Source: a virus
Lineage: Duplodnaviria; Heunggongvirae; Uroviricota; Caudoviricetes
Reading direction: 5' to 3' (one strand)
Length of the DNA stretch: 47,797 nt
Virus record (IMG/VR): IMGVR_UViG_2571042438_000008
This document shows positions 11,498-28,939 of this stretch, piece after piece. Within the stretch, counting starts at the first letter, position 1; each line of letters opens with the position of its first letter. The notes below the pieces were generated by a model. The model ran no database searches. It was not told the origin of the DNA and worked only from the letters and a program-made list of their open reading frames with translations. The position numbers and the translations under genes are program-made.

Positions 11498-11525
11498 AAT
11501 TTGGGCGTAACAGTGCTCTACGCAT

Positions 11526-11545: not shown

Positions 11546-11658
11546 ATGCGCCATCGTGTTATTCAGGAGGCTAATCCCGGCCGTAGATTTTGCTACGGCT
11601 CGGAAAGTGTCCACCAATGGCGCATTTATGTCAATACGGCGGGATTTTAACAGAGACA

Positions 11659-12239: not shown

Positions 12240-12244
12240 CGATT

Positions 12245-12268
12245 AGGCCCCTTCGGGGGCCTTTTTTT
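12245..12268 (+). terminator. Rho-independent terminator (plus strand)
   Basis: AGGCCCC-TTCG-GGGGCCT followed by T7. Confidence 0.8.
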
Positions 12269-12751: not shown

Positions 12752-12786
12752 TTATATAAATCTATAAAACTATAATTATATATTAT
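12752..12786. repeat. AT box (TTATATAAATCTATAAAACTATAATTATATATTAT) between parA and the parG-like gene
   Basis: Member of the dispersed AT-box family built from TATAATTATA and ATAAATCTATA words. Confidence 0.7.
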
Positions 12787-14053: not shown

Positions 14054-14710
14054 TCATAACCAGTTGACAACACTAACTACGCGGCCAAGAACTTTATAAC
14101 GCTTAAATTCCTCGTTATTCAGATGCTTAGTGTTCATTTCAGCATCCCTTTCGGTTGACAGCATAACAGCATTGTCACCCGGTATGACTCTACAGTGCCT
14201 CAAAACAACCAGGCCATTTCTGTCTTCAAGGGCATAGATCCCCTCATGAATCTCTGTATCGTCTGTATTAATCAGGACTTGGGAGCCTGGGGATATTGTT
14301 GGTGACATTAACTCATCGTTGCTCTGGAGAACTGACAGAGACGATGGGTTGATGTTCTTGCTTCGTAGAATCTCCTGTTCTATCGCCAGCACTGGCTTTT
14401 CTCCGGCGTGCGATGCTATGTCATTTTTTATAGCTACAAGCCCAGGAATAACAGGAGCGTTAGTATTCTGGGGTGGGAACGGGTTATCTGTTAAGCACGC
14501 GATATAAGGCGCTGATGCTTTCAGGGCGTGCGCGATTTTCTTGATGGCAGGTATAGATGGTTGTCTTAATCCGGCCTCATAGTTCTGCAAGGTGCTTAAG
14601 CCTATTCCAGTGACTTGCTGGAGATCTCCGGCAGTCATGCCGGATTGTTTCCGTAGAGTCTGAATGCGCAGACCTATTTCTTTCTTGATGTTCTCGTCGT
14701 TGCTTTTCAT
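14054..14710 (-). CDS. CI-like repressor (XRE HTH + S24 LexA-like C-terminal domain, catalytic dyad apparently substituted)
   Basis: The N-terminal HTH is MTAGDLQQVTGIGLSTLQNYEAG. The C-terminus aligns by eye to the S24 fold: DELMSPTISPGSQVLIN against GDSMEPTI.dGd.vlv, and GLVVLRHCRV against ..vvKRl... The gene is divergent from a Cro-like gene across an operator-rich region. Confidence 0.85.
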   Translation of the reverse strand: MKSNDENIKKEIGLRIQTLRKQSGMTAGDLQQVTGIGLSTLQNYEAGLRQPSIPAIKKIAHALKASAPYIACLTDNPFPPQNTNAPVIPGLVAIKNDIASHAGEKPVLAIEQEILRSKNINPSSLSVLQSNDELMSPTISPGSQVLINTDDTEIHEGIYALEDRNGLVVLRHCRVIPGDNAVMLSTERDAEMNTKHLNNEEFKRYKVLGRVVSVVNWL

Positions 14711-14762: not shown

Positions 14763-14850
14763 TTTCACATGGTAAGACGAGAGGTGGACCACAAATAGAA
14801 GGTTATTTTTTGTTTCGCCCATTGAAAAACTCACGATATGTGGTTTTAAT

Positions 14851-14865
14851 ACCACGTATCGTGGT
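14851..14865. promoter_or_regulatory. Operator: perfect ACCAC-GTATC-GTGGT
   Basis: In the cI/cro intergenic region. Degenerate relatives lie at 14788-14804 (ACCAC-AAATA-GAAGGTT) and 14830-14844 (CTCAC-GATAT-GTGGT). Confidence 0.6.
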
Positions 14866-14884: not shown

Positions 14885-15379
14885 ATGACCTTTCAGGAGT
14901 GGGTTGACGAAAATGGAGGCCAAATTGGTGTTGCCAGAAAGTTTTGCTTTACGTCATCACTGATTGGTGCCTGGTATCGCTTCGAGAGATTCCCTCGTGC
15001 GGATAACCTGACGCTGCTGGTGGCGTATTCGGAAGGCCGGATTAACGTCCAGCAATGGGCGGCAGATTTTGCCGAACGTCAGCGCCAGCGTAGCGATGGC
15101 ACATCGGTTCGGCAGAACAAGATCAAAGGGAATCTCCCTGTTAACTGCTTATCAAGGCTGAAAGCGGTTTTCTCTGAGCTGGGGATGCCTGCGGAGCGTT
15201 GCAATCTACGCGGTCCGCGATTCATTGCTCGCTGGAAACACTCACACGTAACCGTTTCAGAGGTTCGTGATGCGATTACCGTGCTGGAGCTTAAGAATAA
15301 AGATTCCAGCGATATCGAGCTGATTCATAAGGAGATTAGCAACGCCCGGCGTTCAGCACTTGGGAGGCTTGAGGAATGA
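14885..15379 (+). CDS. Cro/YdaS-like HTH protein with C-terminal extension (first gene of rightward operon)
   Basis: Divergent from cI. The N-terminus QEWVDENGGQIGVARKFCFTSSLIGAWYRFERFP resembles the Cro/YdaS-type HTH. Confidence 0.55.
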   Translation: MTFQEWVDENGGQIGVARKFCFTSSLIGAWYRFERFPRADNLTLLVAYSEGRINVQQWAADFAERQRQRSDGTSVRQNKIKGNLPVNCLSRLKAVFSELGMPAERCNLRGPRFIARWKHSHVTVSEVRDAITVLELKNKDSSDIELIHKEISNARRSALGRLEE

Positions 15380-15891
15380 TGATTCTGGCCTTCTTTGGTG
15401 ATAATCACCAGATTCAATCGCAGGTGGTGCACTACCTTGATCAAACGATTAAAGGATTTGTTATCGATCATATTGATAACGATAGCAAACGTCTATCTGT
15501 AGAGCAGAAAATTGGAGGTGTGCAGCGACTGGTTGCCAGCCGTAACAGACGTGACACCGTAACAGTCGTTACGGGGATTACGGAGGTCATGGAGTACCAG
15601 ATGTTGCTGCATCGTGGAGCTGTTTTCTGCGTTCTTCCTGGTATTCTGCCAGCAATTCTTGCTCGTGGTTTTGTCCCTATTGATGAGTCGTTCTTATATG
15701 TAACCCCAAGCCGTTCCCTTCTGGATACGGAGGCGAAGCGTCGCATTTATATGATGCCGGACGAGGCATTTTCTGAATGTTACCGCCGTGAAATGAGGTT
15801 GGGTAAACGAGAAGTGTCTGTTGTTCGTGATGGCAGGTTTTTAAGAAGCCGCACGGTGAAAAGCACCAGAAATGACGGGGGCCATCAATGA
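15376..15891 (+). CDS. Hypothetical protein
   Basis: 171-aa ORF with start overlapping the upstream stop (ATGATGA). Confidence 0.6.
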   Translation: MMILAFFGDNHQIQSQVVHYLDQTIKGFVIDHIDNDSKRLSVEQKIGGVQRLVASRNRRDTVTVVTGITEVMEYQMLLHRGAVFCVLPGILPAILARGFVPIDESFLYVTPSRSLLDTEAKRRIYMMPDEAFSECYRREMRLGKREVSVVRDGRFLRSRTVKSTRNDGGHQ

Positions 15892-16121
15892 GTAGTTATG
15901 TTCGCGGTGCTGCGATGCATTGCCAGAATCCCCAATTCTGGCGCTTTCTGACCAGTAAAACAGGGAAGAACGTTTCAAACAGTTCTGAGGCCTCTGTGAT
16001 TCTGCGTGAGTTTTGCGGGATCTCATCCCGTAAAGAGCTGGCAAAGAACTACGCGGCCAGAAGCATGTATGTCCAGTTAATCAACGAGTTCAACCTCTTT
16101 ATCAATGGTAAGGGGCGCTGA
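15888..16121 (+). CDS. Hypothetical protein
   Basis: 77-aa ORF with overlapping start and stop on both sides. Confidence 0.55.
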   Translation: MSSYVRGAAMHCQNPQFWRFLTSKTGKNVSNSSEASVILREFCGISSRKELAKNYAARSMYVQLINEFNLFINGKGR

Positions 16122-16525
16122 TGAACGGACGTACACCAACGAAGAAAGAGAAACTTTATATACAAGCGGTGCTCACTCACGTGGGTTGCATAGCTTGCAT
16201 TATTGATGGCCGTGAAATTGAGAATCCAGAGCTGTGGACGGAGCTACATCACGATCCTGATTACGGCAGCGTTGATGAGAATTGCCACTTCCATAGCTTT
16301 GGGTTGTGCGCACCACATCATCGCGGTGTTGTGCCTGGTGGTGGGCGTGTGCCTCCGCATATTGCCGTTCGTCACCCTCCCCTGAGTAATTGTGCTCGCT
16401 TTGTTGAGCGTTATGGCACAGATGAATTTTTGTGTGCGCAGACGTGGGAGCTGTTGCCGCAGTCAGTTAAAGACGAAATTGGGTTTGATCTTAGTCTTGG
16501 TGAAGTACCAGGGGATACCAAATGA
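16121..16525 (+). CDS. HNH-type nuclease, P1 Ref-like (recombination enhancement) family
   Basis: The Cys/His pattern GCIACI..ELHHDP..FGLCAPHHRG is as I recall it for Ref-family proteins. The gene sits in an early operon. Confidence 0.5.
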   Translation: MNGRTPTKKEKLYIQAVLTHVGCIACIIDGREIENPELWTELHHDPDYGSVDENCHFHSFGLCAPHHRGVVPGGGRVPPHIAVRHPPLSNCARFVERYGTDEFLCAQTWELLPQSVKDEIGFDLSLGEVPGDTK

Positions 16526-16854
16526 GATATACCGGCTTTCGCAAACCAGCGACAAGGAAAAGCAAATACGGCAATAAAAAAACGGTTGTCGATGATATCG
16601 CTTTTGATAGCAAAAAAGAGGCTGATTACTACTGCGAACTGAAGCTACTGAGAAAAGCTGGCCGCGTTGTGACGTTTCTTATGCAGGTGCCTTTTCATCT
16701 GCCAGGTGGTGTCGTTTATAAACTTGATTTCATGGTGTTTTATGACGATGGGACGATTGATTGTGTCGACACTAAAGGTGTGCGAACAGACGTCTACATC
16801 ATGAAGAAAAAGCAGGTAGAGGCGCTTTATCCCGTCACGATACGGGAGATCTGA
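16522..16854 (+). CDS. DUF1064-family protein (putative PD-(D/E)XK-like endonuclease/resolvase)
   Basis: KYGNKKTVVDDIAFDSKKEADYYCELKLL..KLDFMVFYDDG..DTKG matches the DUF1064 signature. Confidence 0.75.
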   Translation: MRYTGFRKPATRKSKYGNKKTVVDDIAFDSKKEADYYCELKLLRKAGRVVTFLMQVPFHLPGGVVYKLDFMVFYDDGTIDCVDTKGVRTDVYIMKKKQVEALYPVTIREI

Positions 16855-16857
16855 ACA

Positions 16858-17235
16858 GTGAGACGCGATCTGGATAGCTTGTTTGAGCTATGGGCGCTGT
16901 GGGTGCGCAATGGCTGCAACGCCCGTAGCGGTTTCGCGTCGATGTTAGAAATGATGATGGTTACGCGCTGCCAGTTTACCGGAGGGGGCGGCGCACCAAA
17001 TGACTCACTGGAAACCAGTATAGAGGGAGCGGTGACGGCCCTCACGGTAGTTGATGAGACTGCGGCGCTGGTTGTCCGAATTGAATACGGGGCGTGGGAG
17101 ATTCGGGGCCTCGACATAAATGCACCGCATATTGATAAAGCCCACGCCCTTTCTCTTAGCCTCAGACAGTATCGCCGGAAGCTGGCAAAAGCCAGGGCGT
17201 ATGTTGTCGACTATTTGAAAAAGCGAAGAGAGTAA
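16858..17235 (+). CDS. Antitermination protein Q-like
   Basis: 125 aa. The LFELWALWVRNG.. N-terminus and the ..LSLSLRQYRRKLAKARAYVVDYL C-terminus resemble the Phage_antitermQ family. It is the last gene of the early operon and is directly followed by cassette copy 2. Confidence 0.5.
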   Translation: MRRDLDSLFELWALWVRNGCNARSGFASMLEMMMVTRCQFTGGGGAPNDSLETSIEGAVTALTVVDETAALVVRIEYGAWEIRGLDINAPHIDKAHALSLSLRQYRRKLAKARAYVVDYLKKRRE

Positions 17236-17296
17236 AAGTGTCATTTTGAGCTGTTTTGATGGTGTGTAGACATCGGGAACATCGAAAATCTATAAA

Positions 17297-17398
17297 TATA
17301 TAATTATAGATTTATATAAAAAGTGCTTTACAGGTGGGAAAAAATTTCCTATGGTTATACCCGAAACCGAGCGATACCCGCCCTGGTTAAACCGGAGA
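17297..17398 (+). repeat. Promoter-leader cassette, copy 2 of 3 (102 bp)
   Basis: -35 TTTACA at 17327-17332, -10 TATGGT at 17350-17355. Identity with copy 3 continues to the ATG (AATCTGATGA). An extra inverted AT word ATCTATAA lies upstream (17288-17295). Confidence 0.85.
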
Positions 17399-17404
17399 AA
17401 TCTG

Positions 17405-18472
17405 ATGAATAAACAAGTAATTATTTCTGACTGGATCAACAACCCTAACAGCCTGTTAAGCACTGATACTGGCTACCTATTACGCCATGTTAATGGTCGT
17501 ATGGTCAAAAGCGATGAGCACGAAACCTTTTTCTTTGTTGAAGACGATGGGCGTATCTATGAGGATGGTTACTCTTATGAAGCCCAAACTGGTTGTATCC
17601 CTGCGGAGCTGGTGGACGTAACAGAAGATCTGCGCAAAGCATGGCTTGAACAGCAGCAGCGCGGAGATGATTACGTAAACACCTATCAGGAACGCCAGAA
17701 CGCGCGTCTTGCCCGATATATTGCTCGTGCAGAAAAAGCCAGAAAAGAAGGTGCGGTAGCGCATAAGCGAGCGCATGACCTGTTGGATGTGATCCCGTTA
17801 GGCCAGCCGATTTTAGTTGACCATTATAGCGCGAAAGGCCATCGCCGCCGTTTGTCTAAAGCTGATGCGTTATTCAGAAAAGCGTTTGTTGAATGCGAAA
17901 GTAAAGCATCACACTACGAGAGCAAAGCCGCAGGTGTTGGTCGTAATGGAATTTCGTCTGATGATCCTGATGCGCTATTTAAGTTGCTTCGTAAGCTGCA
18001 AGGCTGCATGAAGTCACACGTCAAAATGAAGGCCGCAAATAAGGCCATTCGCAAATACAAAAAAGACCAAATACAGCAGCTTTCTGCATTAATCGATCTC
18101 AGGTTTACAGAAAGCGAAGCCAAAGAGTTACTGGCCGGAGATTTCTGTGGGCACATCGGATTCCCTTCATACGCACTGAGCAACAATAACGCCGAAATCA
18201 AACGACTACAGAGCCGTATTAAGGAGCTTGAATCGGTCAAGTCTGTAACAGGAGCACAGCGCGAAGAATACGACGGCTTTTCTATGGAGATAGATCCAGA
18301 GGATAACCGCATCCTGTTTTATTTCCCTGGCAAACCAGAGGCAAACATTCGTTCGCTGCTTAAATCACGCGCCTTTAAGTGGAGTCCAACCCGTAATGCA
18401 TGGGTTCGCAAGATTACTCCAAACGCCCTGGCTGATGCCCGATATCTAAAAGAATCGCTATTGAAAGCCTGA
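17405..18472 (+). CDS. DUF3560-family protein
   Basis: 355 aa from ATG 17405. The block GQPILVDHYSAKGHRRRLSKAD..ISSDDPDA..MKAANKAIRKY and the C-terminal FKWSPTRNAWVR fit DUF3560, a family common in plasmid leading regions. The upstream extension MVIPETERYPPWLNRRNL is just the cassette leader. Confidence 0.7.
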   Translation: MNKQVIISDWINNPNSLLSTDTGYLLRHVNGRMVKSDEHETFFFVEDDGRIYEDGYSYEAQTGCIPAELVDVTEDLRKAWLEQQQRGDDYVNTYQERQNARLARYIARAEKARKEGAVAHKRAHDLLDVIPLGQPILVDHYSAKGHRRRLSKADALFRKAFVECESKASHYESKAAGVGRNGISSDDPDALFKLLRKLQGCMKSHVKMKAANKAIRKYKKDQIQQLSALIDLRFTESEAKELLAGDFCGHIGFPSYALSNNNAEIKRLQSRIKELESVKSVTGAQREEYDGFSMEIDPEDNRILFYFPGKPEANIRSLLKSRAFKWSPTRNAWVRKITPNALADARYLKESLLKA

Positions 18473-18503
18473 CAGTAAGCCTACGGCGGGACGTCTCCCG
18501 CCG

Positions 18504-18536
18504 TATATAGAATTATATATTTATACAAATGTATAA
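18504..18536. repeat. AT box (TATATAGAATTATATATTTATACAAATGTATAA)
   Basis: AT-box family member at an operon boundary. It is preceded by the hairpin ACGGCGGGA-CGTC-TCCCGCCGT (18484-18505). Confidence 0.6.
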
Positions 18537-18549
18537 GGACGCCTCGACA

Positions 18550-18831
18550 ATGAAACGCAAAATTATTAACCCCCAAGATGTGATTAATTTCCTGACCGAT
18601 CACCCATGTTCAAAAGTGGACGTAATCGCGGAGCACATTGGTGTGTCGCAGAACTCTATGCGTTGCAGACTGAGAAGCATGGTTGCCGAAGGACAGATAA
18701 CAACCAGGAAAATAAATGGTTGCCTGTACTACTCCGCTAAACCGGAATTGCCATTTGGCATGAATCCTAACTCCATGTTGTTTAACACCTTATTAGCCAA
18801 AGTTAAGCCGTTGAGAGGGGCTGTGGCATGA
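18550..18831 (+). CDS. Winged-helix DNA-binding protein (alternative start 18529)
   Basis: INFLTDHPCSKVDVIAEHIGVSQNSMRCRLRSMVAEGQI is a MarR/wHTH-like pattern. Confidence 0.55.
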   Translation: MKRKIINPQDVINFLTDHPCSKVDVIAEHIGVSQNSMRCRLRSMVAEGQITTRKINGCLYYSAKPELPFGMNPNSMLFNTLLAKVKPLRGAVA

Positions 18832-19193
18832 GCATCAAAACCCATACCGGAATAATCATTACCAATGATGGTGAGAAAAGAGTGAAGTTGCGCGAAACGC
18901 CGACAACCTGGTGTGTTGGTCCGAAAGAAACATATCGCAAGGAAGATGGCCGTCGTTGTGGGGCACCACTTTCCCGCCGTCGCCTCCTTTTGAGCACGAT
19001 AAAACCTATCGGGCAGGTTGAGCAACCAACGACTCCGGTAACGAAGATTTCAGACAAGAGTCTGGCAAACCTGATCGCTGATGCGGACAAGGTGCTGGAG
19101 CGGAACACCCCCGTTGCAGATGAGGAATGGTGGCAGGATTTCCGAGCCGCAATGCTAGAGCTTCAGGAACGTCGTCGGGAGGAGTTGAAGTGA
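18828..19193 (+). CDS. Hypothetical protein
   Basis: 121-aa ORF with overlapping junctions. Confidence 0.55.
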   Translation: MSIKTHTGIIITNDGEKRVKLRETPTTWCVGPKETYRKEDGRRCGAPLSRRRLLLSTIKPIGQVEQPTTPVTKISDKSLANLIADADKVLERNTPVADEEWWQDFRAAMLELQERRREELK

Positions 19194-19381
19194 GCAAGAA
19201 AAATGCCGGATGGGTCAGGCCAATGAAGGCGAATAAACATCATTATTTTAATGAAGGTGAAGTAACCAGCATTTGCGGCCGTTGGATGTATTTTGGTGAT
19301 TACCGTGAGCCAGACACTTTTGAGAGTCCTGATGATTGCGTGTCTTGTCGCCGGAAATTGAACAAGGTGGCTTCTAAATGA
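19190..19381 (+). CDS. Small Cys-containing protein (GTG start)
   Basis: GTGA overlap with the upstream stop and a GGAGGAG Shine-Dalgarno. ICGRW..CVSC suggests a zinc-ribbon-like fold. Confidence 0.45.
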   Translation: MSKKNAGWVRPMKANKHHYFNEGEVTSICGRWMYFGDYREPDTFESPDDCVSCRRKLNKVASK

Positions 19382-19989
19382 AAGAACGTGGTGTTGTTTT
19401 TAATGACGATATGGTTAGGGCCATCCTCGAAGGAAGGAAGACGCAGACTCGCCGACCTGTAAAAAATGTCAGGGCCGATAACTGCCTGGTTATCCGTAAA
19501 CCGACAAAGAAACGCAATGGTGTCTATACCCACGTTATGGATGCACTGGAACATGGTTTATGCCCGTTCGGTAACGTTGGTGATCGCATATGGGTCCGTG
19601 AAACATTCAACGCTTTTTGGCTGGATAACGATGTCATTCAGGAAATCAAAGATGGTGTCTCTCTGGCTTCTGAACTGTGTGATTACAAGGCTGATTACTC
19701 AGATAGTAGCAAGCCAGCTGAGGGCTGGACCCCGTCGATTCACATGCCGCGCTGGGCTTCGCGTATTTTGCTGGAAATTACCGACGTGCGTGTGGAGCGG
19801 CTGCATGACATGAGCGAGGCAGATGCTAAAGCAGAAGGCGCATCTCCGGTGACGTACAAGATTACACCGCCGGAAGCTGTTTATCGCGTTGGCTTTGGTG
19901 ATATCTGGCGCGGTATTTACGGGCAAGAGAACTGGCTATCTAACCCGTGGGTATGGGTAATTGAGTTTAAGCGTATTAAGGAAGCATAA
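19378..19989 (+). CDS. ASCH/PUA-like domain phage protein
   Basis: FNDDMVRAILEGRKTQTRRP..GDRIWVRE..SIHMPRWASRILLEITDVRVERLHDMSEADAKAEG is a signature I recognise from ASCH-like phage proteins. Confidence 0.55.
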   Translation: MKERGVVFNDDMVRAILEGRKTQTRRPVKNVRADNCLVIRKPTKKRNGVYTHVMDALEHGLCPFGNVGDRIWVRETFNAFWLDNDVIQEIKDGVSLASELCDYKADYSDSSKPAEGWTPSIHMPRWASRILLEITDVRVERLHDMSEADAKAEGASPVTYKITPPEAVYRVGFGDIWRGIYGQENWLSNPWVWVIEFKRIKEA

Positions 19990-19991
19990 CT

Positions 19992-20336
19992 ATGAGCAAA
20001 TCACTTAACGCACGCTGCATCCGTCGCTGGACCGTCGAATTTAAAGGCCGCTGCGACTCAAAATATAGCCCGTATTGGCGTAAGCGCGACCTGCGGGGGT
20101 ACATCCGTGAGGTTGCACTGAACACCGCGGATTGCATGGTCGAGCGTATGGCCGAGGATAATGCGATGGTAGATTTTCAGGGGGCTAATCGAGGATGGTC
20201 GCCGGAGTTCTCAGCCTGGTACCACGAACGCCGTGAACAGTATCTCAAAGAGGCGCGCGACCATCTGAACGAAGACGCCACCAATGACGAGGTTGACGAG
20301 GAGATTCAGAACGAGCTGGAGGCCTGGAATGACTAA
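19992..20336 (+). CDS. Hypothetical protein
   Basis: 114-aa ORF. Confidence 0.55.
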   Translation: MSKSLNARCIRRWTVEFKGRCDSKYSPYWRKRDLRGYIREVALNTADCMVERMAEDNAMVDFQGANRGWSPEFSAWYHERREQYLKEARDHLNEDATNDEVDEEIQNELEAWND

Positions 20337-21045
20337 CAGCACAGCAATTAACTATCAGGCACTACGTGAGATAGCAAAACAGGCAACACAAGGCGAATGG
20401 GTCGCATTTATTTCGTCGGGTACTGGTACATATGCGGTGCATACACCCGGTGATAAACGATGTGAAGACGTTATCAAATGGACCGGCTTTGACGGACAGA
20501 AAAACGCAGAGAACAACGCTCGTTATATCGCAGCTTTCAACCCAGAAGTAGTGCAGGCGTTGCTGAATGAACGGGAAGCACAAAGCAAACGCATTGCTGA
20601 ACTGGAGGCCAGTCGTGCGGCGCTGGCGGCGGAGAATGCAGGGCTTAAGGCGATATGTGATGACCGTCGCAGGTTCATCATGAATGGGGTGCAGACGGGT
20701 TATATCAAGGTGCCAACAGCGGAAACAGCTCCAGACCTTGAGACAATTCGCATTGCTATATCACCACAAAAGCCCATTCCAGCCACCGATGCTTTCCTGG
20801 CTGAAATACGTGCGGAGGCACGCAACGAGGGGATTAACTACACCGCAAGCCGTCTTGCTGCTGCGTTCAATCACGGATTTATCAATAAGTCTTTGCGTGA
20901 AGTTTTCGACGTTACACGCATGATTTTGTCAGCGAAAGAAGAGTTGGCTAATGAACCGCACCCGATTGATGGCCTGTCCGGTGAATATGCGGAGAAATCT
21001 CTTGAGGAGTGGGCGGAACAGATTCGTAAAGGAGGCGACAAGTGA
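20329..21045 (+). CDS. Ead/Ea22-like family protein
   Basis: The N-terminus ..LREIAKQATQGEWVAF..YAVHTP.., the phrase ENNARYIAAFNPEVVQALLNE and a coiled coil fit the family. ATGA overlap with the upstream gene. Confidence 0.6.
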   Translation: MTNSTAINYQALREIAKQATQGEWVAFISSGTGTYAVHTPGDKRCEDVIKWTGFDGQKNAENNARYIAAFNPEVVQALLNEREAQSKRIAELEASRAALAAENAGLKAICDDRRRFIMNGVQTGYIKVPTAETAPDLETIRIAISPQKPIPATDAFLAEIRAEARNEGINYTASRLAAAFNHGFINKSLREVFDVTRMILSAKEELANEPHPIDGLSGEYAEKSLEEWAEQIRKGGDK

Positions 21046-21233
21046 GCAATTTAGCGAGGCTACGAGCAGTATTTAGATATTCAGAGCGGGTAATGAGGCA
21101 CATACAACCGAAAACATGGCAGAAATTGGATTCTGTGGGAGTTAAGTTGGAGAAGATTACTCAACTTAAGCAGTGGAATATCGGCGAATATTATGGAAGT
21201 CCTGGTCGGGATGTTCAGTTGGTAAAAAGTTGA
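21042..21233 (+). CDS. Hypothetical protein
   Basis: 63-aa ORF with a GTGA overlap. Confidence 0.4.
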   Translation: MSNLARLRAVFRYSERVMRHIQPKTWQKLDSVGVKLEKITQLKQWNIGEYYGSPGRDVQLVKS

Positions 21234-21378
21234 ACATTGCTTTTTTATTGATCGATTAACCACGATATGAAGGTTTTTTTATGGGGAAACCTTGTTTTAG
21301 GTGGTAACTGGGTGTAGTGTTTCATTTAACGTAGTAAAACTGCGTTAAGCGATTACCGCGTAATTTGTTGCTTTATGA

Positions 21379-21410
21379 AGCCCTGCCTTTTTCGGCGGGG
21401 CTTTTTTTTT
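21379..21410 (+). terminator. Strong rho-independent terminator immediately upstream of the lysis genes (tR-prime-like)
   Basis: AGCCCTGCC-TTTTTC-GGCGGGGCT followed by T9. Confidence 0.8.
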
Positions 21411-21423
21411 AACGAGGATTTCA

Positions 21424-21819
21424 ATGTCAGCAGAACCAATTTCCGGTACGGCCGTTGCTGCTGGTGGCCTGATGGGTGCCAGCGTTTTTGGTATTGCAAC
21501 TGGTATTGATTACGGCGTTGTATTCGGGGCATTTGCTGGCGCTGTTTTCTATGTTGCTACAGCGGTGAATATTAGCCGTCTCAAGCTGATTGGCTATTTC
21601 TTTACATCGTTCATTGTTGGAGTGATTGGAGCGCCGTTAGTTGGCTCATTTCTTGCTAAATGGACCAGCTACAACGATCGTCCTCTGGATGCGCTTGGTG
21701 CGGTTATTGTGGCTGCATTGACCATTAAAATCCTCACGTTCGTAAACAGCCAGGATCTCGGTAGCATCTTTGGAATGCTTTCCCGCTTACGTGGAGGGGG
21801 TTCAAATGGTAAGCAGTGA
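21424..21819 (+). CDS. Multi-pass membrane protein, holin/antiholin candidate
   Basis: 131 aa with Gly/Ala-rich predicted TM segments. It is the first gene of the lysis cassette. Confidence 0.45.
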   Translation: MSAEPISGTAVAAGGLMGASVFGIATGIDYGVVFGAFAGAVFYVATAVNISRLKLIGYFFTSFIVGVIGAPLVGSFLAKWTSYNDRPLDALGAVIVAALTIKILTFVNSQDLGSIFGMLSRLRGGGSNGKQ

Positions 21820-22102
21820 CCCGTCAGCACTGATTAATGCGGTGCTTTGCACAGTAATAGTAATGGCGCTGATGCTTTATCGACGGAAAGACTCCAGGCA
21901 TCGTCCATTTGTTTCCTTTCTGGCTTATATTTACGTCATTGTATACGCCAATGTTCCCTTCCGTTATGTGTTCGGTCTTTATCAAGAATCCCACTGGCTG
22001 GTGGTTATTGGAAATCTGATTATCTGCATCGTTGTTCTGTATTTCAGGGGCAATCTGGCGCGGATAGTTGACGCATTAGGGTTTAATCATGACCAAAGAT
22101 GA
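21806..22102 (+). CDS. Holin candidate (3 predicted TM segments)
   Basis: GGAGGGGG Shine-Dalgarno before ATG 21806. 98 aa. It sits immediately upstream of, and overlaps, the endolysin gene. Confidence 0.55.
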   Translation: MVSSDPSALINAVLCTVIVMALMLYRRKDSRHRPFVSFLAYIYVIVYANVPFRYVFGLYQESHWLVVIGNLIICIVVLYFRGNLARIVDALGFNHDQR

Positions 22103-22631
22103 GATTTTTAACAGCGTTCTTGGAAAAGAGGGCGGCTATGTGGATCACCCTGACGACAAGGGAGGCCCAACAAAGTGGGGCATTACTCAGAACACTGCCC
22201 GTGCTCATGGATACCGTGGCGATATGCGCGATTTAACCCGCGAACAGGCACTGGAAATCCTTGAGGCTGATTACTGGTACGGACCACGCTTTGATCAGGT
22301 GGCCGCATTATCCTCTGATATTGCCGCAGAGCTGTGTGATACCGGTGTGAATATGGGGCCAACAGTGGCGTCCAAAATGCTTCAACGCTGGCTGAATGTG
22401 TTCAATCTGCGTGGGAAGCTGTATCCCGATTTGGATGCAGATGGACGAATCGGTCCACGTACCATTAATGCGCTGCGTGCTTATCTTGGGAATCGGGGAA
22501 AAGACGGCGAACGGGTGATGCTGACGTCGCTGAACTGTACGCAGGGCGAACGCTATCTGGAGCTGGCGGAGAAGCGCGAGGCGAATGAGTCGTTTGTCTA
22601 CGGCTGGATGAAAGAGCGAGTGGTGGTATGA
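22089..22631 (+). CDS. Endolysin, glycoside hydrolase family 108 + C-terminal peptidoglycan-binding domain
   Basis: GKEGGYVDHPDDKGGPTKWGIT (GH108 signature) and ..DADGRIGPRTINAL.. (PG_binding_3-like). Confidence 0.85.
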   Translation: MTKDEIFNSVLGKEGGYVDHPDDKGGPTKWGITQNTARAHGYRGDMRDLTREQALEILEADYWYGPRFDQVAALSSDIAAELCDTGVNMGPTVASKMLQRWLNVFNLRGKLYPDLDADGRIGPRTINALRAYLGNRGKDGERVMLTSLNCTQGERYLELAEKREANESFVYGWMKERVVV

Positions 22632-22906
22632 CTGGTTTGAAGGCCGTTTTGTCATTTATTGGCACAATTATATTGGTTGCATTCGGCGCGTTTGGTTTTG
22701 GTCGTATGAAGGGGCGAGAAAAGGCCGAAGATGAAGCTGAAAAGCAGCGCATTAATGAGAATGCAGCCGCCGTAAAAGCCACTGCGGAGCGGCGTATAGA
22801 AGTGACAAAAGAGGTGGGGAATGTACATCAGAGTGTTAACCATATGGCTGATGACGATGTTGATCGCGAGCTGCGGGAGTCGTGGAAGCGTCCCGGTGGT
22901 GGTTGA
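22628..22906 (+). CDS. i-spanin (Rz-like)
   Basis: An N-terminal TM segment followed by a charged coiled coil. The o-spanin gene overlaps it. Confidence 0.7.
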   Translation: MTGLKAVLSFIGTIILVAFGAFGFGRMKGREKAEDEAEKQRINENAAAVKATAERRIEVTKEVGNVHQSVNHMADDDVDRELRESWKRPGGG

Positions 22907-23199: not shown

Positions 23200-23275
23200 G
23201 GCCCCTTAGCTCAGTGGTTAGAGCAGGCGACTCATAATCGCACGGTCATCGGTTCAAATCCGGTAGGGGCCACCA
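23200..23275 (+). tRNA. tRNA with anticodon CAU, tRNA-Ile2 (ileX-like) rather than Met
   Basis: A 76-nt cloverleaf, GGCCCCTTAGCTCAGTGGTTAGAGCAGGCGACTCATAATCGC..GGTTCAAATCC..GGGGCCACCA, with the anticodon at 23233-23235 and an encoded CCA. The 5-prime half is identical to E. coli ileX as I recall it. The acceptor stem has C4-G69 and C5-G68. Confidence 0.9.
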
Positions 23276-23483
23276 ATTCACTCTCACACATAAAGATAAG
23301 CGCGGTGGAGTTACTTCCTTCGTGCTCATCTTTATGCGTGCCTGGTGCGCATTTCGGGCGAACGTGGGGCTAAGTTACAGGCAGGGCCTGTTATCCGCAA
23401 AGGGGTAAAAGCTGGAGCGGCACGGAACTGTAGCCGTGTTACCAAAACAGCGTTGTCGGGCGATATCCGGCACACAACAGGCA

Positions 23484-23515
23484 AGGGCATTAATCAGTCT
23501 GGTTAGTGCCCTTTT
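23484..23515 (+). terminator. Rho-independent terminator candidate
   Basis: AGGGCATTA / TAGTGCCCT form a 9-bp stem with an 11-nt loop, followed by TTTT. Confidence 0.5.
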
Positions 23516-23583
23516 CGTTGTGTCTGCTGTAGAGCTGGCCAGCGTTATGACTGCCGGAGATCAGCGCCGGAGGCACAACTAAC

Positions 23584-24171
23584 ATGGAGGCAATTGCATT
23601 GTTTAATCTGATTTATGCAGATCCCCCCTGGGAATACAAAGATAAGTGTAAGGATGGGAATCGTGGAGCTGGTTTTAAGTATCCAACGATGAAAGCTGAG
23701 GATATTGCTCGTATTCCTGTCTGGCAGCTTGCTAATCCTGAATCGTGTTTGTTGGCCATGTGGTGGGTTCCGACTCAGCCAGAAGAAGCGTTGCTGGTGG
23801 TGAAAGCATGGGGATTCAGGCTTATGACCATGAAGGGCTTCACATGGAACAAATGTGGTAGCCGACAACCAGATAAGCTGGTGATGGGGATGGGGCATAT
23901 GACTCGTGCAAACAGTGAAGATTGCTTGTTTGCGGTAAAAGGCAAATTGCCGACCCGCCTTGATGCGGGGATCATTCAGTCGTTTACATCGCCTCGTCTG
24001 GAGCATTCTCGGAAGCCTGATGTGGTTCGTGACAAGCTGGTAAGGCTGTTAGGTGATGTTCCTCGTATTGAGCTGTTTTCTCGCGGTGATTTACCTGATG
24101 GTTGGCATGGCTGGGGCAACCAGTGCAATGGAGGTATCCAGTTGCATGATGCTCTCTGGCAAGTGGCATAA
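23584..24171 (+). CDS. MT-A70 family DNA N6-adenine methyltransferase
   Basis: DPPW catalytic motif (IYADPPWEY). FKYPTMK and EHSRKPD are typical MT-A70 blocks. Confidence 0.85.
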   Translation: MEAIALFNLIYADPPWEYKDKCKDGNRGAGFKYPTMKAEDIARIPVWQLANPESCLLAMWWVPTQPEEALLVVKAWGFRLMTMKGFTWNKCGSRQPDKLVMGMGHMTRANSEDCLFAVKGKLPTRLDAGIIQSFTSPRLEHSRKPDVVRDKLVRLLGDVPRIELFSRGDLPDGWHGWGNQCNGGIQLHDALWQVA

Positions 24172-24174
24172 AAT

Positions 24175-24276
24175 TATATAATTATATATTTATATAAAAA
24201 GTGCTTTACAGGTGGGAAAAAATTTCCTATGGTTATACCCGAAACCGAGCGATACCCGCCCTGGTTAAACCGGAGA
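24175..24276 (+). repeat. Promoter-leader cassette, copy 3 of 3 (102 bp)
   Basis: One mismatch to copy 2. -35 TTTACA at 24205-24210 and -10 TATGGT at 24228-24233. Confidence 0.85.
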
Positions 24277-24282
24277 AATCTG

Positions 24283-24552
24283 ATGAAAGTACAAGACCGT
24301 GAAGTAGTAAAAAACCTCCTGCAATACCTGACCTCAAAAAACCTGACGGGCAGCGTTGAGTTCCGTGAAGCGTTAAAACATTTCAACGTCACTACGGTTT
24401 ATCGTTGGGAAAACAAACATTCTGAAAGACCGTATGTGGTGGATGTTTTTGCGCCTGATATTGAGTGCGGTTTTGAGCGTCATTCGTTCAAGGAGAAACA
24501 TTCTGCTGATTTTTTTTGTGAGGTTGTATGTGCGGCAGGAGATGATGAGTGA
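24283..24552 (+). CDS. Hypothetical protein (first gene behind cassette copy 3)
   Basis: 89 aa from ATG 24283 (GGAGA Shine-Dalgarno). The upstream extension in the ORF track is the cassette leader. Confidence 0.6.
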   Translation: MKVQDREVVKNLLQYLTSKNLTGSVEFREALKHFNVTTVYRWENKHSERPYVVDVFAPDIECGFERHSFKEKHSADFFCEVVCAAGDDE

Positions 24553-24749
24553 TGCGTATTTCCTTCAAACGTGCGACTGAGCAGCAACGCAAAGAGTTCC
24601 TGGCTGATGATGTTGCGGCCGTTTATGACCTCATGAAAGAGGTTGTGGAATCAGGGAACTACACGGCGGCAAAGATGCTTAAACTGCAATTCTTGCTGGG
24701 CGACCTGAAATACAAATCCGAAGTTGTCGCCGGACGACGCGAGCATTAA
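24549..24749 (+). CDS. Hypothetical protein
   Basis: 66-aa ORF with a GTGATG overlap. Confidence 0.5.
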   Translation: MMRISFKRATEQQRKEFLADDVAAVYDLMKEVVESGNYTAAKMLKLQFLLGDLKYKSEVVAGRREH

Positions 24750-24771
24750 ACCGTAACGATAACGAACAACG

Positions 24772-24798
24772 AGCCTCGGCAATTGCCGGGGCTTTTTT
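24772..24798 (+). terminator. Rho-independent terminator
   Basis: AGCCTCGGC-AATT-GCCGGGGCT followed by T6. Confidence 0.8.
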
Positions 24799-24823
24799 AC
24801 ATCCAGACAAAGGAGAACATGGG

Positions 24824-25123
24824 ATGCCTTCGACAAGCACCAAAAAAGAAATGGCGGTTAGTGATGTGCTTTACGCGCTTTCGACTATATGTGACGGAGC
24901 AATGATGAGGATGAAAGTCCTCCGTGAAGCATACGGAAAAAGTCACGATGAGGCAGCTAAAGAATGCCTGAATGAGATTGTGGACTTCATTGATAACCAT
25001 CGTTCAGTTATATCGCGTCAACCGACAGAGTCGTCCATCACGATTAGCGCACCGGTTATCAATATATCAGTAACTGCGGCGTGTAAATCAGCAGCGGAAG
25101 ATGATCGTGCTTATGCCGAGTGA
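24824..25123 (+). CDS. Hypothetical protein
   Basis: 99-aa ORF with an AAGGAGAA Shine-Dalgarno. Confidence 0.55.
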   Translation: MPSTSTKKEMAVSDVLYALSTICDGAMMRMKVLREAYGKSHDEAAKECLNEIVDFIDNHRSVISRQPTESSITISAPVINISVTAACKSAAEDDRAYAE

Positions 25124-25313
25124 TTTGTTCTGGTTTCCGCTTCCAATAAGAGATTTGTTGGTATTTCTGGCTGGCGCTTACGTCTGGAGAAAAGCGAAAG
25201 ACACCTCGTTATCTTTGAGGTTTGTCTTAGCTATATCGGTAGGAACCGCGCTGGGTACGGCGTATCTCTTGATATTACTGGAGGTATTCATTGAAAAATG
25301 GATAGTTTCATGA
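25101..25313 (+). CDS. Small membrane protein (2 predicted TM segments)
   Basis: 70 aa with hydrophobic segments LLVFLAGAYVW and AISVGTALGTAYLLILL. Confidence 0.45.
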   Translation: MIVLMPSDLFWFPLPIRDLLVFLAGAYVWRKAKDTSLSLRFVLAISVGTALGTAYLLILLEVFIEKWIVS

Positions 25314-25462
25314 ATGGTCTTGGCATTTTTCTGATGATTGTGGCCGTGTGTTTTTGTATCTCGCTGGTGGTTATTGCTGGTGTCCTGTGGCGCATCTTAG
25401 TGGCGCAGAGAGCTTTTCGGCTTAAGCGGGAGCAAATGCGCCTTGATTTCTATCGAAAGTAA
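25310..25462 (+). CDS. Small membrane peptide (50 aa, 1 TM segment); not in the supplied ORF track
   Basis: ATGA overlap with the previous gene. The sequence is MNGLGIFLMIVAVCFCISLVVIAGVLWRILVAQRAFRLKREQMRLDFYRK. A terminator follows. Confidence 0.4.
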   Translation: MNGLGIFLMIVAVCFCISLVVIAGVLWRILVAQRAFRLKREQMRLDFYRK

Positions 25463-25469: not shown

Positions 25470-25499
25470 AGCCTCGCGGTGTCGCGGGGCTTTTATTTT
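25470..25499 (+). terminator. Rho-independent terminator
   Basis: AGCCTCGCG-GTGT-CGCGGGGCT followed by TTTTATTTT. Confidence 0.8.
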
Positions 25500-25591: not shown

Positions 25592-25921
25592 ATGCGTATC
25601 AGTGAAGAGTGGGGAGAAGTACAAGCCCGTGCTCAGTATGCAAATGGCGAAAACCAGTATTTGATTCACTATCAGGCGGCTGATGGTCGTGCTACCACAG
25701 AGTGGTTCGGTGAATCGATGTTGATTGCGATGGAAGATGATCGTTATCCAGGCTGCCCTGTTTTTGCCTGTGTTGATTTGCCAGAAGGCGCGGTACTTGA
25801 AGACGACAAAGAAGAATGCTCGTCTGATGGCGAACTTGTCATTACCGGAATCGTTGATGGTAAGCCGGAATACTCTCGTATTGAGGTAAATAACGGCCGC
25901 ATCCGTTTGATCCCTGCGTAA
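25592..25921 (+). CDS. Hypothetical protein
   Basis: 109-aa ORF. Confidence 0.5.
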   Translation: MRISEEWGEVQARAQYANGENQYLIHYQAADGRATTEWFGESMLIAMEDDRYPGCPVFACVDLPEGAVLEDDKEECSSDGELVITGIVDGKPEYSRIEVNNGRIRLIPA

Positions 25922-25974
25922 CGCATTACAGCAGCTCTTGTGCTTATCAGGGGCTGCGATAATGCGCAAACCAA

Positions 25975-26026
25975 AGCTGCCTCATTAACTCCAGCTCGCT
26001 GTGGAGTTAATGCTGGTGGCTTTTTT
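25975..26026 (+). terminator. Long compound hairpin + T6 (terminator)
   Basis: The inner stem is CATTAACTCCA / TGGAGTTAATG (11 bp). An outer wobble-containing stem surrounds it, followed by TTTTTT. Confidence 0.65.
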
Positions 26027-26155
26027 ATTACTGGAAGGTGGGCGACCGCCGTCAGTTGCGACCTGACGACAGTCATTCATACCCACAGGGTGCCGTGGAT
26101 ACAAACCGAGGCCCACTTGCTTGCACAAGCGAGGGGATTTTAGCGGATAAACGGC

Positions 26156-26779
26156 ATGACAAAACATCTTAATGTGGTTTCTTTACCACTTTCTGTGTTG
26201 ATTGGTTATGAAAAGAACGCTCGCACACACTCCGTGGAGCAGGTAGATCAGATTGTTGCCAGCATACAGGAGTACGGATGGACTAATCCGATCCTGATAG
26301 ACGAGAACAACGTTGTAATTGCTGGTCATGGTCGAATTGCTGCGGCCACTCAGTTGGGGATGGATGAGGTTCCCTGCATTGTTCTGGAAGGGCTAACGGA
26401 GAATCAGAAGAAGGCATATCGTCTGGCCGACAACCGTATTCCGCTGAATGCTGGTTGGGATGAAGAGTTGTTAAGCGCGGAGCTTGCAGATCTTGCGGCC
26501 GATGATTTTGCTCTGGACTCAATTGGTTTTACTCAGCGCGAACTGGATAACTTATTGAGTGCGGCGGTCTACGATGACACAGAGGGTATGGATATCCCAT
26601 TTGAGAAGGATGAGGCCAAATCAGGCGTAAAAGTTCAGTACCTGTCATTTGGAGGTCATAAAATCCCGGCAACGGATGAGGAAGCGGATCGTTTTGACTG
26701 CGCGGTGTCTCGTTATGTTGATGATAATGGCAGCTATATCGGATTTGTATCCGCATTGCTGGCTGGGGAGGTGTGCTGA
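26156..26779 (+). CDS. ParB/Srx-fold (ParB-like nuclease domain) protein, paralogue 1
   Basis: KNARTHSVEQVDQIVASIQEYGWTNPILIDENNVVIAGHGRIAAATQLGMDEVPCIVL..QKKAYRLADNRIPLNAGWDEELL. It is a full-length paralogue of 29446..30036. Confidence 0.8.
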   Translation: MTKHLNVVSLPLSVLIGYEKNARTHSVEQVDQIVASIQEYGWTNPILIDENNVVIAGHGRIAAATQLGMDEVPCIVLEGLTENQKKAYRLADNRIPLNAGWDEELLSAELADLAADDFALDSIGFTQRELDNLLSAAVYDDTEGMDIPFEKDEAKSGVKVQYLSFGGHKIPATDEEADRFDCAVSRYVDDNGSYIGFVSALLAGEVC

Positions 26780-28152
26780 TGCTTCACCTCAATTACGACA
26801 TAACGCACCTACGCGGCGCGGAATATAACCCGCGTTTTATCGGTGAGGATGATCTTGCGAGGCTGGCGGAAAGCGTCAGGGAGCTGGGGCTTGTGAAGCC
26901 ATTGATAGTGCGCGGCGATTTGCTGGTGGCGGGACACCAAAGGACGAAGGCGCTACGTAAGTTGGGAATAACGCGTGCTGCGGTGTATGTGTTGCCCTGT
27001 GAAACGACGGTATACGACGAAGTACGGTTTAACCAACTGCATAACGGAACGGATTTTGATAGCGGAGATGAGCGTTGCAGGGTGTCCGGTCTGGAAGATA
27101 AGCATGGTTTTGTTCAGGTATCGGCAAGCCAGATCTCAGGCAATATGCGCGCGAAAATGGCATATGTTCGAAAGAACATAGCGGAACTGGTTATCAAGTA
27201 TGGTCCGTGGGGTGGTTGTGTTGCTACTCAGTCTGGCGAGGTTATTCACTGTGCTCAGTATGCATTAGCAGCGAAGATGACGCGCACACCGCTAACGGTG
27301 TTTGTGATCCCTGATGTTGAGAAGGAAAAATACCAAAGTTATCTGAATAAAACTTATGGTGTATTTGAGTATTCTCATCTGGAGAAAACAACATACATCC
27401 AGACGTATGCGCAGCTTATGCGGTTGCGTAATGGTGGCAGCCTGAAATCAAACCTGTATGAGTCGTTGATCCTCCCGATCATTGCCAAGACGCCAAGAGG
27501 AATTGATTTTGGTTCGGGGCAGGGAGACTACGCGCGAATGCTCAGGGCAAAGGGATATAACCTGCATGATCTCGAGCTTTTCCGCCGTAAGGGCGCTGGA
27601 AACACTCTGGATAGGACCGCAACAAACCGGATGATTGATACGCTGGTGGACGACTTAAAAACGCGAGGGCGTTACGACTACGTGATTTGCGATAGCGTTT
27701 TGAACTCGGTCGATAGTGTCGAGGCTGAATGGTCCGTTCTGACGGTTCTGAAAGGCTTGTGTAAAGCTGGTGGGTCAATATTCTTTTCTGGCCGTAGCCG
27801 TGGAGAGCTGGAAACCGTCCTGAAACAAACACAAGCGGCGAGTTCCAAAAGCCGGCTTTATTTTATTGATCATAACGGTTTTACCGCGTTGTACCGGAAG
27901 GGGCACTGGTTTTACCAGAAGTTTCACTCTGATGATGAAGTGAAGCAGTTGTGTCGTGTACATGGTTTCAGGATTAAGCGGTCAATATTCAACTGTAAGA
28001 GCTGGTATTTGCACGTCATTAACGATGATTCCCTTAGTTGGGCGAGTCTGGAGAAAGCTGTTCGTTTTGAGTTTGAGTTGCCGTTGCCTGGTGGTTCAAC
28101 AATCGGACGATCTGATGATGTGCTGGCGGCTTTCCGGCCGTTGATTAAGTAG
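26779..28152 (+). CDS. Fusion protein: N-terminal ParB/Srx-like domain + C-terminal class I SAM-dependent methyltransferase
   Basis: N-terminus: YNPRFIGEDDLARLAESVRELGLVKPLIVRGDLLVAGHQRTKAL. C-terminus: IDFGSGQGDY (motif I), YDYVICDSVLNSV, GGSIFFSG. No DPPY/NPPY-type DNA-MTase motif is seen. TGATG overlap with the upstream gene (the ORF is open from GTG 26773). Confidence 0.7.
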   Translation: MLHLNYDITHLRGAEYNPRFIGEDDLARLAESVRELGLVKPLIVRGDLLVAGHQRTKALRKLGITRAAVYVLPCETTVYDEVRFNQLHNGTDFDSGDERCRVSGLEDKHGFVQVSASQISGNMRAKMAYVRKNIAELVIKYGPWGGCVATQSGEVIHCAQYALAAKMTRTPLTVFVIPDVEKEKYQSYLNKTYGVFEYSHLEKTTYIQTYAQLMRLRNGGSLKSNLYESLILPIIAKTPRGIDFGSGQGDYARMLRAKGYNLHDLELFRRKGAGNTLDRTATNRMIDTLVDDLKTRGRYDYVICDSVLNSVDSVEAEWSVLTVLKGLCKAGGSIFFSGRSRGELETVLKQTQAASSKSRLYFIDHNGFTALYRKGHWFYQKFHSDDEVKQLCRVHGFRIKRSIFNCKSWYLHVINDDSLSWASLEKAVRFEFELPLPGGSTIGRSDDVLAAFRPLIK

Positions 28153-28168
28153 TGTGTAGGAGGCGCTG

Positions 28169-28888: not shown

Positions 28889-28939
28889 TCATCGTGTGGT
28901 TGATGGTGTTGTTATGCAGAGTGTATTCACTGTGTTCTG

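Follow-up and report, generated by a model that had tools for sequence, protein, structure and literature searches.

The late switch of the DNA considered here, IMG/VR record IMGVR_UViG_2571042438_000008 (47,797 nucleotides [nt]; this whole stretch is referred to as the window), is read as a terminator-gated operon that needs antitermination by a 125-residue Q-like protein, a reading assigned a probability of roughly 55%. The element in question, at positions 21234-21423, is the regulatory junction between an early-right gene array and the lysis/late gene array. A strong terminator lies immediately before the holin gene, the leader ahead of it is modular and contains an invariant core, and the profile of the Q-like protein family matches antiterminators of the Q21 type. 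Overall, the arrangement is a divergent variant of the textbook terminator-gated late operon.

Terminators and the Q-like protein

An earlier, sequence-only reading had described 21234-21423 as a hairpin-rich leader ending in a strong terminator just before the lysis genes and followed by four more terminators on the plus strand, all of which were confirmed by scans and folding. The sequence features named in that reading were likewise all present, at most 1-3 nt from where they had been placed (with the ACCAC-N5-GAAGGTT element at 21259-21275). The terminators considered here are the following.

21377-21413, plus strand: intrinsic terminator with an 11-base-pair (bp) stem (7 G-C), a 6-nt loop and U9; -20.1 kcal/mol, z -5.3
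23483-23520, plus strand: intrinsic terminator after the transfer RNA (tRNA) gene; -18 kcal/mol
24771-24800, plus strand: intrinsic terminator closing the cassette of the module promoter at 24203; -18.3 kcal/mol
25470-25499, plus strand: intrinsic terminator; -16.1 kcal/mol
25973-26026, plus strand: compound hairpin with a T6 tail, the final terminator ahead of the ParB-like/packaging genes; -27.5 kcal/mol, z -5.5
43629-43656, plus strand: intrinsic terminator of the late operon, located between the genes for the tape measure and a gpD-like protein; -11.8 kcal/mol

The first of these presents the G+C-rich hairpin and subsequent U-tract of an intrinsic terminator and is the top-ranked terminator-like site within 14-30 kilobases (kb). 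No strong terminator was found on the plus strand between 14865 and 21377, such that this is the first one encountered after 6.5 kb of early genes. When a strict definition was applied (a perfect stem of 8 bp or more, including 5 or more G-C pairs, and a T-rich tail, for which ~0.25 sites per strand are expected at random), four terminators were detected on the plus strand within 21.4-25.5 kb and another at 43629, among the tail genes. The hairpin at 25973-26020 is imperfect and is overlooked by a simple terminator scan. Within the spans given above, the stem-loop of the first terminator occupies 21377-21404, and the fold energies of the next three refer to 23483-23513, 24771-24794 and 25470-25491.

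At the start of the holin gene, the U-tract ends at 21413, the Shine-Dalgarno sequence GAGGA occupies 21414-21418 and the ATG is found at 21424. Because the U-tract and the ATG are separated by only ~10 nt that include the Shine-Dalgarno sequence, there is no space for a promoter between the 21377 terminator and the holin start, and every holin messenger RNA (mRNA) must have read through that terminator. The window shares with the PR'-6S-tR' region of lambda this strong terminator just before the lysis genes that has to be read through, as well as co-oriented late genes downstream. Of the earlier claim that the late genes need antitermination, what stands as observation is thus that lysis transcripts must pass the 21377 terminator, while action of the Q-like protein at this point is what we infer. 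That the lysis, tRNA, packaging, head and tail genes are co-oriented agrees with the RefSeq annotation of the near-identical plasmid pECO-b75, where all genes from the holin onward lie on one strand. The further terminators, which had been placed ahead of the terminase genes, are present, but the genes at 26156-28888 are ParB-N/methyltransferase-like and the large terminase is encoded at 30593-32449. Two cassettes in this region, at 24824-25462 and 25592-25921, have no recognizable promoter of their own.

Regions upstream of related holins were considered in ~80 IMG/VR loci, mostly lambdoid-type prophages, with holins 80-100% identical to that of the window. These loci yielded 57 distinct upstream sequences, unrelated to that of the window itself, nearly all with one or two terminators at most ~60 nt from the holin start.

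The Q-like protein is encoded in the early-right array, near the end of the early-right genes and after recombination/nuclease genes, an order comparable to the nin-Q order of lambdoid phages.

16858-17235, plus strand: gene of the Q-like protein (125 residues), after genes for a Ref-like nuclease and a DUF1064 protein

All public annotations name the product 'hypothetical protein', and the PHROG that it matches is one without assigned function. The protein also aligns along its full length with the NCBIfam model PA0613_fam (NF051483), at 21.3 bits and an E-value of 2.5e-4, missing the equivalog cut-off of 100 bits. When a narrow profile built from close relatives (A2) was compared with the PDB and Pfam, nothing useful was returned and a wider family (A7) was needed. 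An exhaustive search based on hidden Markov models assigned 130 representative clusters, of 107-165 residues, to the Q-like family, and a search of the genome contigs with the Q-like profile revealed one locus. Comparison of a 106-sequence profile with PF06530 using hhalign gave a probability of 84% and an E-value of 7.8e-6 over 114 collinear columns, while in a search of all PDB sequences with the same profile, Q21 was the only match (E-value 2.7e-5). PF06530 was matched directly by 10 of the 106 relatives (best E-value 1e-4) and PA0613_fam by 56 of them (best E-value 6.7e-9).

Structure prediction was also considered. The AlphaFold model of the protein (predicted local distance difference test score 77) comprises an N-terminal helix, a conserved loop of low confidence and a four-helix C-terminal domain. 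The 21Q protein contains a sigma-region-4-like helix-turn-helix with an N-terminal helix packed against it (PMC6606751), and both are seen in the predicted model. When the model was compared with the PDB using Foldseek, Q21 structures occupied ranks 1-4 (probability 0.77-0.94, with E-values of only ~0.3). In light of the family-profile and fold evidence, therefore, the 125-residue protein is predicted to be a remote homologue of Q21/Q82-type antiterminators found outside the curated Pfam family, backing the earlier designation of 16858-17235 as Q-like. With Q21, Q82 and Q933W (PF06530), it shares a length of ~125-130 residues, a full-length collinear alignment and the same predicted fold. It differs from them in that identity is only ~18-23%, below the Pfam threshold for a single sequence, and in that a GGGG-P loop stands where PF06530 has its conserved Cys-rich motif.

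The leader and its candidate loading site

The leader contains the following elements.

21259-21306, plus strand: hairpin 1, composite, with an outer stem ACCAC/GTGGT and an inner stem AAGGUUU/AAACCUU; -15.1 kcal/mol, z -3.2
21325-21349, plus strand: hairpin 2, UUUAACGUAGU-AAA-ACUGCGUUAAG (TTAACG..CGTTAA); -10.2 kcal/mol, z -3.5
21237-21346, plus strand: backbone-linked part of the leader (110 nt), delimited by blastn and alignment; 85-88% identity in Salmonella-type relatives
21290-21346, plus strand: invariant core (57 nt), delimited by alignment; varies only at 21299-21301 and 21311
21292-21297 and 21315-21320, plus strand: candidate weak promoter suggested by conservation, TTGTTT and TAGTGT with a 17-nt spacer; 7/12
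21300-21306 and 21311-21316, plus strand: repeats GGTGGTA and GGTGTA in the putative spacer, picked after the fact and without statistical support
21327-21332, plus strand: TAACGT, candidate sigma-dependent pause element, also picked after the fact and without statistical support

The 190-nt leader as a whole (z -4.3) is more stably folded than all 200 shuffles, as is each of the two hairpins. Inside the phage-plasmid lineage, the leader is conserved at 96-100%. In loci L095 and L096 and in the Salmonella Weltevreden plasmid L116, whose Q-like proteins are 89-93% identical to that of the window, only 21237-21346 is kept (85-88%), ahead of another terminator (AAGCCTCGC...GCGGGGCTT-T7) and an unrelated holin; in locus L009, homology has its boundary at about 21237. 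Because L095, L096 and L116 keep this part of the leader while carrying another terminator and holin, the leader is, by sequence comparison, modular, consisting of a 110-nt backbone-linked element and an exchangeable terminator/lysis cassette. As the layout is kept despite these swaps, the leader-terminator-lysis architecture appears to be preserved through module exchange.

The flanks of the 57-nt core diverge by ~15%. Hairpin 2 lies in the core with its 5' arm and its loop. In hairpin 1, both the loop and the internal loop vary freely between relatives, and the linker before the 21377 terminator is not conserved. In a ten-sequence alignment, 97% of cells were paired, compared with 39-57% when the partners were slid. 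Helix 2 of hairpin 1 was paired in 92%, with two compensatory pairs, both from one lineage, while the eight core pairs of hairpin 2 are invariable and so uninformative on structure.

The sequence-only reading had failed to identify a convincing sigma-70 promoter in 21234-21300. Indeed, no sigma-70 site reaching 9/12 was detected on the plus strand in the whole of 21234-21423 and, in a difference from lambda, the stretch 50-200 nt ahead of the terminator yielded no strong constitutive promoter. The proposal of a ~150-nt, 6S-like leader with its own promoter was accordingly not borne out, given that no promoter was found ~150 nt upstream and that the weak 7/12 candidate would give an RNA of ~85 nt. 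Whereas lambda 6S RNA is 194 nt long, its counterpart here would either be this ~85-nt RNA, starting at 21327, or the 3' end of the 6.5-kb early transcript. The core holds the only TANNNT hexamer with a TTG-type -35 element at 17 nt and, read as a weak PR'-like promoter, is tentatively taken as the preferred loading site of the Q-like protein.

For 21Q, two TGAGCA subsites are found in the promoter spacer (PMC6606751); no TGAGCA-type binding element was found in the leader. The leader was also not picked up with a weight matrix for the lambdoid initial transcribed region (GAGTGGTTAC...GCCACG), where the leader sequences GTGGTAAC and GTAGTAAA, considered as a 933W/lambdoid pR' initial transcribed region (GAGTGGTTAC..GCCACG), ranked below 3000th in the window and were rejected. 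A small open reading frame (ORF) in hairpin 1 (ATG at 21268, 16 codons) was rejected as well, being interrupted by a TGA in L009, as was a likeness of the 65 nt that follow the Q-like gene (17236-17300) to the leader, with a local alignment score of 14 compared with a shuffle mean of 15.

In the mechanism favored here, the Q-like protein would load at 21290-21346, a step proposed at low confidence, with the GGTGGTA/GGTGTA repeats sitting in the spacer, as does the binding element of Q21, and with TAACGT, near +1, perhaps serving as the sigma-dependent pause element. The protein would then modify RNA polymerase such that the 21377 terminator is ignored, in processive antitermination of the lambdoid type, and the modified polymerase would also pass the terminators at 23483, 24771, 25470, 25973 and 43629. 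The terminators after 21377 bound moron-like cassettes inside the late gene array. Without the Q-like protein, the core promoter would yield a terminated RNA of ~85 nt. In 933W, several terminators, tRNA genes and kilobases of morons lie between the Q-dependent pR' and the holin, all of which recur in the putatively Q-controlled stretch of the window. As the 933W layout spans kilobases, distance would, by analogy, rule out neither the core nor the triplicated promoter module described below as the loading site.

Other arrangements were seen in distant relatives. In L084 (9482-9660) and L101 (12641-12790), whose Q-like proteins are 55-59% identical to that of the window, a unit is found that consists of TTTAAM-N17-TATKKT, ATGGTGGTGWAGTTGCCAYC, ~70 nt and a strong terminator, the two units being 79% identical to each other and having the look of a promoter, leader and terminator in series. 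Reading these units as 933W pR'-like was unsupported, with a lambdoid-only matrix leaving both outside the top 3 in their own loci. Four further distant relatives (L098 at ~16000-16171, L099 at ~16520-16689, L100 at ~18590-18764 and L105 at ~15530-15701) contain a conserved G+C-rich stretch of ~110 nt that ends in a 13-14-bp terminator and may be a structured RNA.

Weighing of alternative explanations

Several points weigh against antitermination by the Q-like protein from the core. As a single sequence, the protein has no Pfam match at an E-value of 0.01 and so fails PF06530, while narrow profile A2 matches PF06530 at an E-value of only 0.02 (probability 2%). Its gene lies 4.1 kb from the 21377 terminator, with ten ORFs between the end of the gene at 17235 and the start of the leader at 21234, unlike lambda Q, which is adjacent and to which the window protein is unrelated in sequence. 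The best leader promoter, TTGTTT-17-TAGTGT, reaches 7/12, which is below the scan threshold, and such matches are common by chance. Hairpin 1, moreover, shows some structural conservation that is unexplained if the RNA starts at ~21327. The core is without detectable counterpart where the Q-like protein is at most 65% identical, with nothing above the shuffle range having been found in 12 loci with more distant Q-like genes. Finally, the operator-like site at 26164-26199 hints at separate control of genes past the last terminator.

A second candidate for the loading site is a 115-nt promoter module, present in three copies at 95-100% identity.

8333-8448, plus strand: module copy 1, driving a 126-residue ORF at 8449-8829
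17290-17404, plus strand: module copy 2, with TTTACA-N17-TATGGT at 17327-17355, driving a DUF3560 gene
24168-24282, plus strand: module copy 3, between the terminators at 23483 and 24771, driving an 89-residue ORF

Each copy comprises an AT-rich palindrome, TTTACA-N17-TATGGT, a shared 5' untranslated region and a ribosome-binding site, and the three genes so driven are unrelated to each other. In L095 and L096, identity is ~90% for all copies of the module but only 45-69% for the proteins under their control, which points to a co-regulated set or to gene conversion. Palindromes of sequence TATAATTATA are found exactly at 8342, 12771, 13536, 17299, 23041 and 24177, and with one mismatch at 13463, 13479 and 18508. 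They flank parA (12783-13451) and lie upstream of all three module promoters, of a MarR-like gene and of the tRNA gene; as such, they look like dispersed centromere or operator sites. Scattered partition sites similar to these dispersed palindromes occur in N15.

The sequence-only reading had raised the possibility that the triplicated promoters are loading sites of the Q-like protein, for which no direct support was obtained. Were the protein to antiterminate from a module promoter (at 17327, possibly 24203 or 8368), the leader at 21234-21346 would merely be transcribed through. This appears unlikely, despite some suggestive features. Only 55 nt separate the stop codon of the Q-like gene from the start of copy 2, in the canonical Q-then-PR' order, and the 9/12 promoter of this copy is the only such sigma-70-like site near that gene. 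The module is better conserved than the proteins it drives, and its succession of A-tract, TTTAC, A-rich spacer and TATnnT can be aligned with 933W pR'. In the module, as in the leader core, GGTGG comes after the -35 element, and 933W tolerates kilobases and several terminators between pR' and the holin. What speaks against module loading is that the first 50 transcribed bases contain no TANNNT -10-like element, that the spacer carries an inverted repeat (GGAAA/TTTCC) and not direct repeats, that the copy at 8368 runs into convergent minus-strand genes, that a 147-residue gene separates the Q-like gene from the module in L095, L096 and L116, and that no module lies downstream of the Q gene in relatives at most 65% identical. 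In addition, as the TATAATTATA palindromes are common to the module and the parA region, control of the module by a partition or repressor protein is suggested.

Equally, processive antitermination could be absent altogether, with the 21377 terminator being the leaky end of an early operon or the 125-residue protein an ordinary activator of late promoters, and with late genes having promoters of their own (e.g., in 26100-26200 or 29050-29445). No Q loading site has been pinned down, some members of the Q-like family match models of extracytoplasmic function (ECF) sigma factors, the layout of the early promoter/operator is copied at 26156-26199, and a 400-nt AT-rich gap lies ahead of the terminase block. 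Such a scheme is nonetheless doubtful, to much the same degree as module loading, since no promoter space exists between the terminator and the holin start, the 21377 terminator is among the strongest possible (U9, -20 kcal/mol), and five to six strong terminators are found in a co-oriented array in which several cassettes are promoterless. Moreover, the plus strand at 26000-29790 is without any 9/12 sigma-70 site, and the profile matches of the Q-like family are specific to Q21/PF06530 and extend over the full length rather than over the helix-turn-helix alone.

The leader RNA itself may be the functional product. With two stem-loops, a U-tailed terminator and an invariant, unpaired GU-rich stretch (21298-21324) that could act as a GcvB R1-like seed, it could be a trans-acting small RNA (sRNA) of the Hfq type, derived either from the terminated leader RNA or from the processed 3' end of the early operon. 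In a 331-nt search (21150-21480), the full Rfam model of GcvB (RF00022) matched 21252-21409 at 34.3 bits (E-value 4e-6), with R1 of GcvB aligning to the invariant stretch (UGUAGUGUUU-CA compared with UGUUGUGUUUGCA), yet this score is under the gathering threshold of 42 bits, and a gathering scan of the full window did not return GcvB. The L095 homologue, which has a different terminator, scored only 21.7 bits, no better than unrelated terminator-bearing sRNA families, such that much of the GcvB score is owed to the terminator. The pattern of conservation is sRNA-like, in that the unpaired stretch is invariant, the loop of hairpin 1 is free to vary and the terminator is exchangeable, and Hfq-bound sRNAs are known from prophage regions downstream of PR' (PMC4104026). 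Still, no promoter was found and the linker before the terminator is not conserved, making this explanation improbable. Were it true, a by-product of the Q switch, imitating the R1 seed of the host sRNA GcvB, would have been recruited to reprogram host amino-acid/peptide transport in ~1% of sequenced E. coli.

The least probable explanation is that the leader hairpins serve as a cis-acting RNA conferring protein-free resistance to termination, as does put in HK022. Two stable hairpins do stand directly upstream of the terminator, and the pairing of hairpin 1 is kept despite sequence change. The put hairpins are adjacent, however, whereas those of the leader are 18 nt apart. Hairpin 2 shows no covariation, the invariant unpaired stretch would be left unexplained, a Q homologue is encoded, and constitutive action would render the terminator purposeless.

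The phage-plasmid and its relation to known systems

Bases 21200-21460 of the window match plasmid pECO-b75, from E. coli ECONIH1, at 100% identity. Among 5426 complete E. coli genomes, 70 contain this stretch at 95.8-100% identity, nearly all on plasmids of ~46-58 kb, and it was also found in 61 non-mobilizable plasmids in PLSDB (Escherichia, Salmonella and Klebsiella). Yersinia phage vB_YpM_41 is 97.8% identical over one 7-kb stretch of the window; the same family infects Yersinia pestis as vB_YpM_39/41/44 and is also carried by the reference strain ATCC 25922. Assignment of the pSLy3 group to this family was rejected, as pSLy3 belongs to an SSU5-type family. RefSeq annotation of pECO-b75 includes RepA, ParA, an XRE/S24 repressor and an early gene block on the plus strand. 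Also annotated are two holins, a GH108 endolysin, a tRNA, an MT-A70 methylase and ParB-N-like proteins, as well as the large terminase, portal, protease, capsid and a P2-like contractile tail. Based on this gene content, the window is taken to be a ~47.8-kb E. coli phage-plasmid of the myovirus type, resembling pECO-b75 and vB_YpM_41. The arrays on either side of the leader are as follows, with the lysis cassette (21424-22906) assigned from PHROGs and RefSeq annotation.

14885-21233, plus strand: early-right gene array, preceding the leader
21424-21819, plus strand: holin
21806-22102, plus strand: second holin
22089-22631, plus strand: GH108 endolysin
22628-22906, plus strand: Rz-like spanin
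23200-23275, plus strand: tRNA with a CAT anticodon, Met according to ARAGORN and the Yersinia phage records, Ile (lysidine type) according to RefSeq

Further along, a 400-nt non-coding gap at 29050-29445, AT-rich and GATC-rich, separates the ParB-N/methyltransferase genes from the ParB-like/terminase genes. It may contain a site for packaging, a lytic origin or late promoters. Directly 3' of the stop codon of the major capsid gene, a hairpin at 36824-36851 with a 9-bp stem (7 G-C) and a weak T-tail may be a partial terminator that sets capsid stoichiometry.

Palindromes of the form ACCAC-N5-GTGGT are found in the window 25 times at up to two mismatches, as compared with an expectation of 12.4.

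4726, 13997, 14748, 14851 and 44001: exact ACCAC-N5-GTGGT
11659 and 26185: ACCAC-N5-GTGGT with one mismatch

Exact sites are found 50 nt ahead of repA and within the immunity region, and the palindromes probably serve as operators for the XRE/S24 repressor (14054-14710, minus strand). If so, plasmid replication would be linked to the repressor. The leader site ACCACGATATGAAGG (21259-21273) has three mismatches to the operator and is not among the 25 sites, such that ACCAC-N5-GAAGGTT is at best a degenerate operator copy. At 26156-26199, at the very start of the first gene past the last terminator, ATGACA-N17-TTCTTT is found together with GTGGT-N6-ACCAC (26174-26189), in the same layout as the early promoter/operator at 14822-14865. 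Here, bound repressor could act as a roadblock, or the late block could have a weak, regulated promoter. Elsewhere, in a region that comprises 11413-11599 (minus strand), 11971-12267 (plus strand) and 9976-11175 (minus strand), above-threshold Rfam matches to C4 antisense RNA, isrK and ryfA adjoin an ORF6N-Rha antirepressor-like gene. This region appears to be an antirepressor control of the P1/P7 immI type or the Gifsy-1 isrK type.

Like the morons of lambdoid prophages, the cassette at 24203-24800 has its own promoter and terminator (cf. PMC4104026), and the terminators at 23483, 25470 and 25973 delimit further small cassettes. Unlike morons, several cassettes of the window have a terminator but no recognizable promoter, and one promoter type occurs in three copies across the genome. 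As to the PA0613 family, encoded upstream of a holin in the R/F-pyocin cluster of Pseudomonas aeruginosa, the weak full-length match to the window protein is a shared trait, while the scores, all far under the 100-bit cut-off, and the position of the window gene, which is not next to the holin, differ. PA0613 adjoins the holin PA0614, and their cluster includes a P2-like tail, the tail module of the window being likewise P2-like. No functional study turned up in the literature on PA0613 and on a pyocin antiterminator.

What is new, then, is that an unannotated family can be assigned to the Q21/Q82 superfamily, together with a modular leader that contains an invariant core. That assignment provides a testable model for the lysis/late switch of these phage-plasmids. 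In addition, the overlap of the ~130-cluster family with the PA0613 family suggests that PA0613-type genes beside pyocin holins may encode antiterminators.

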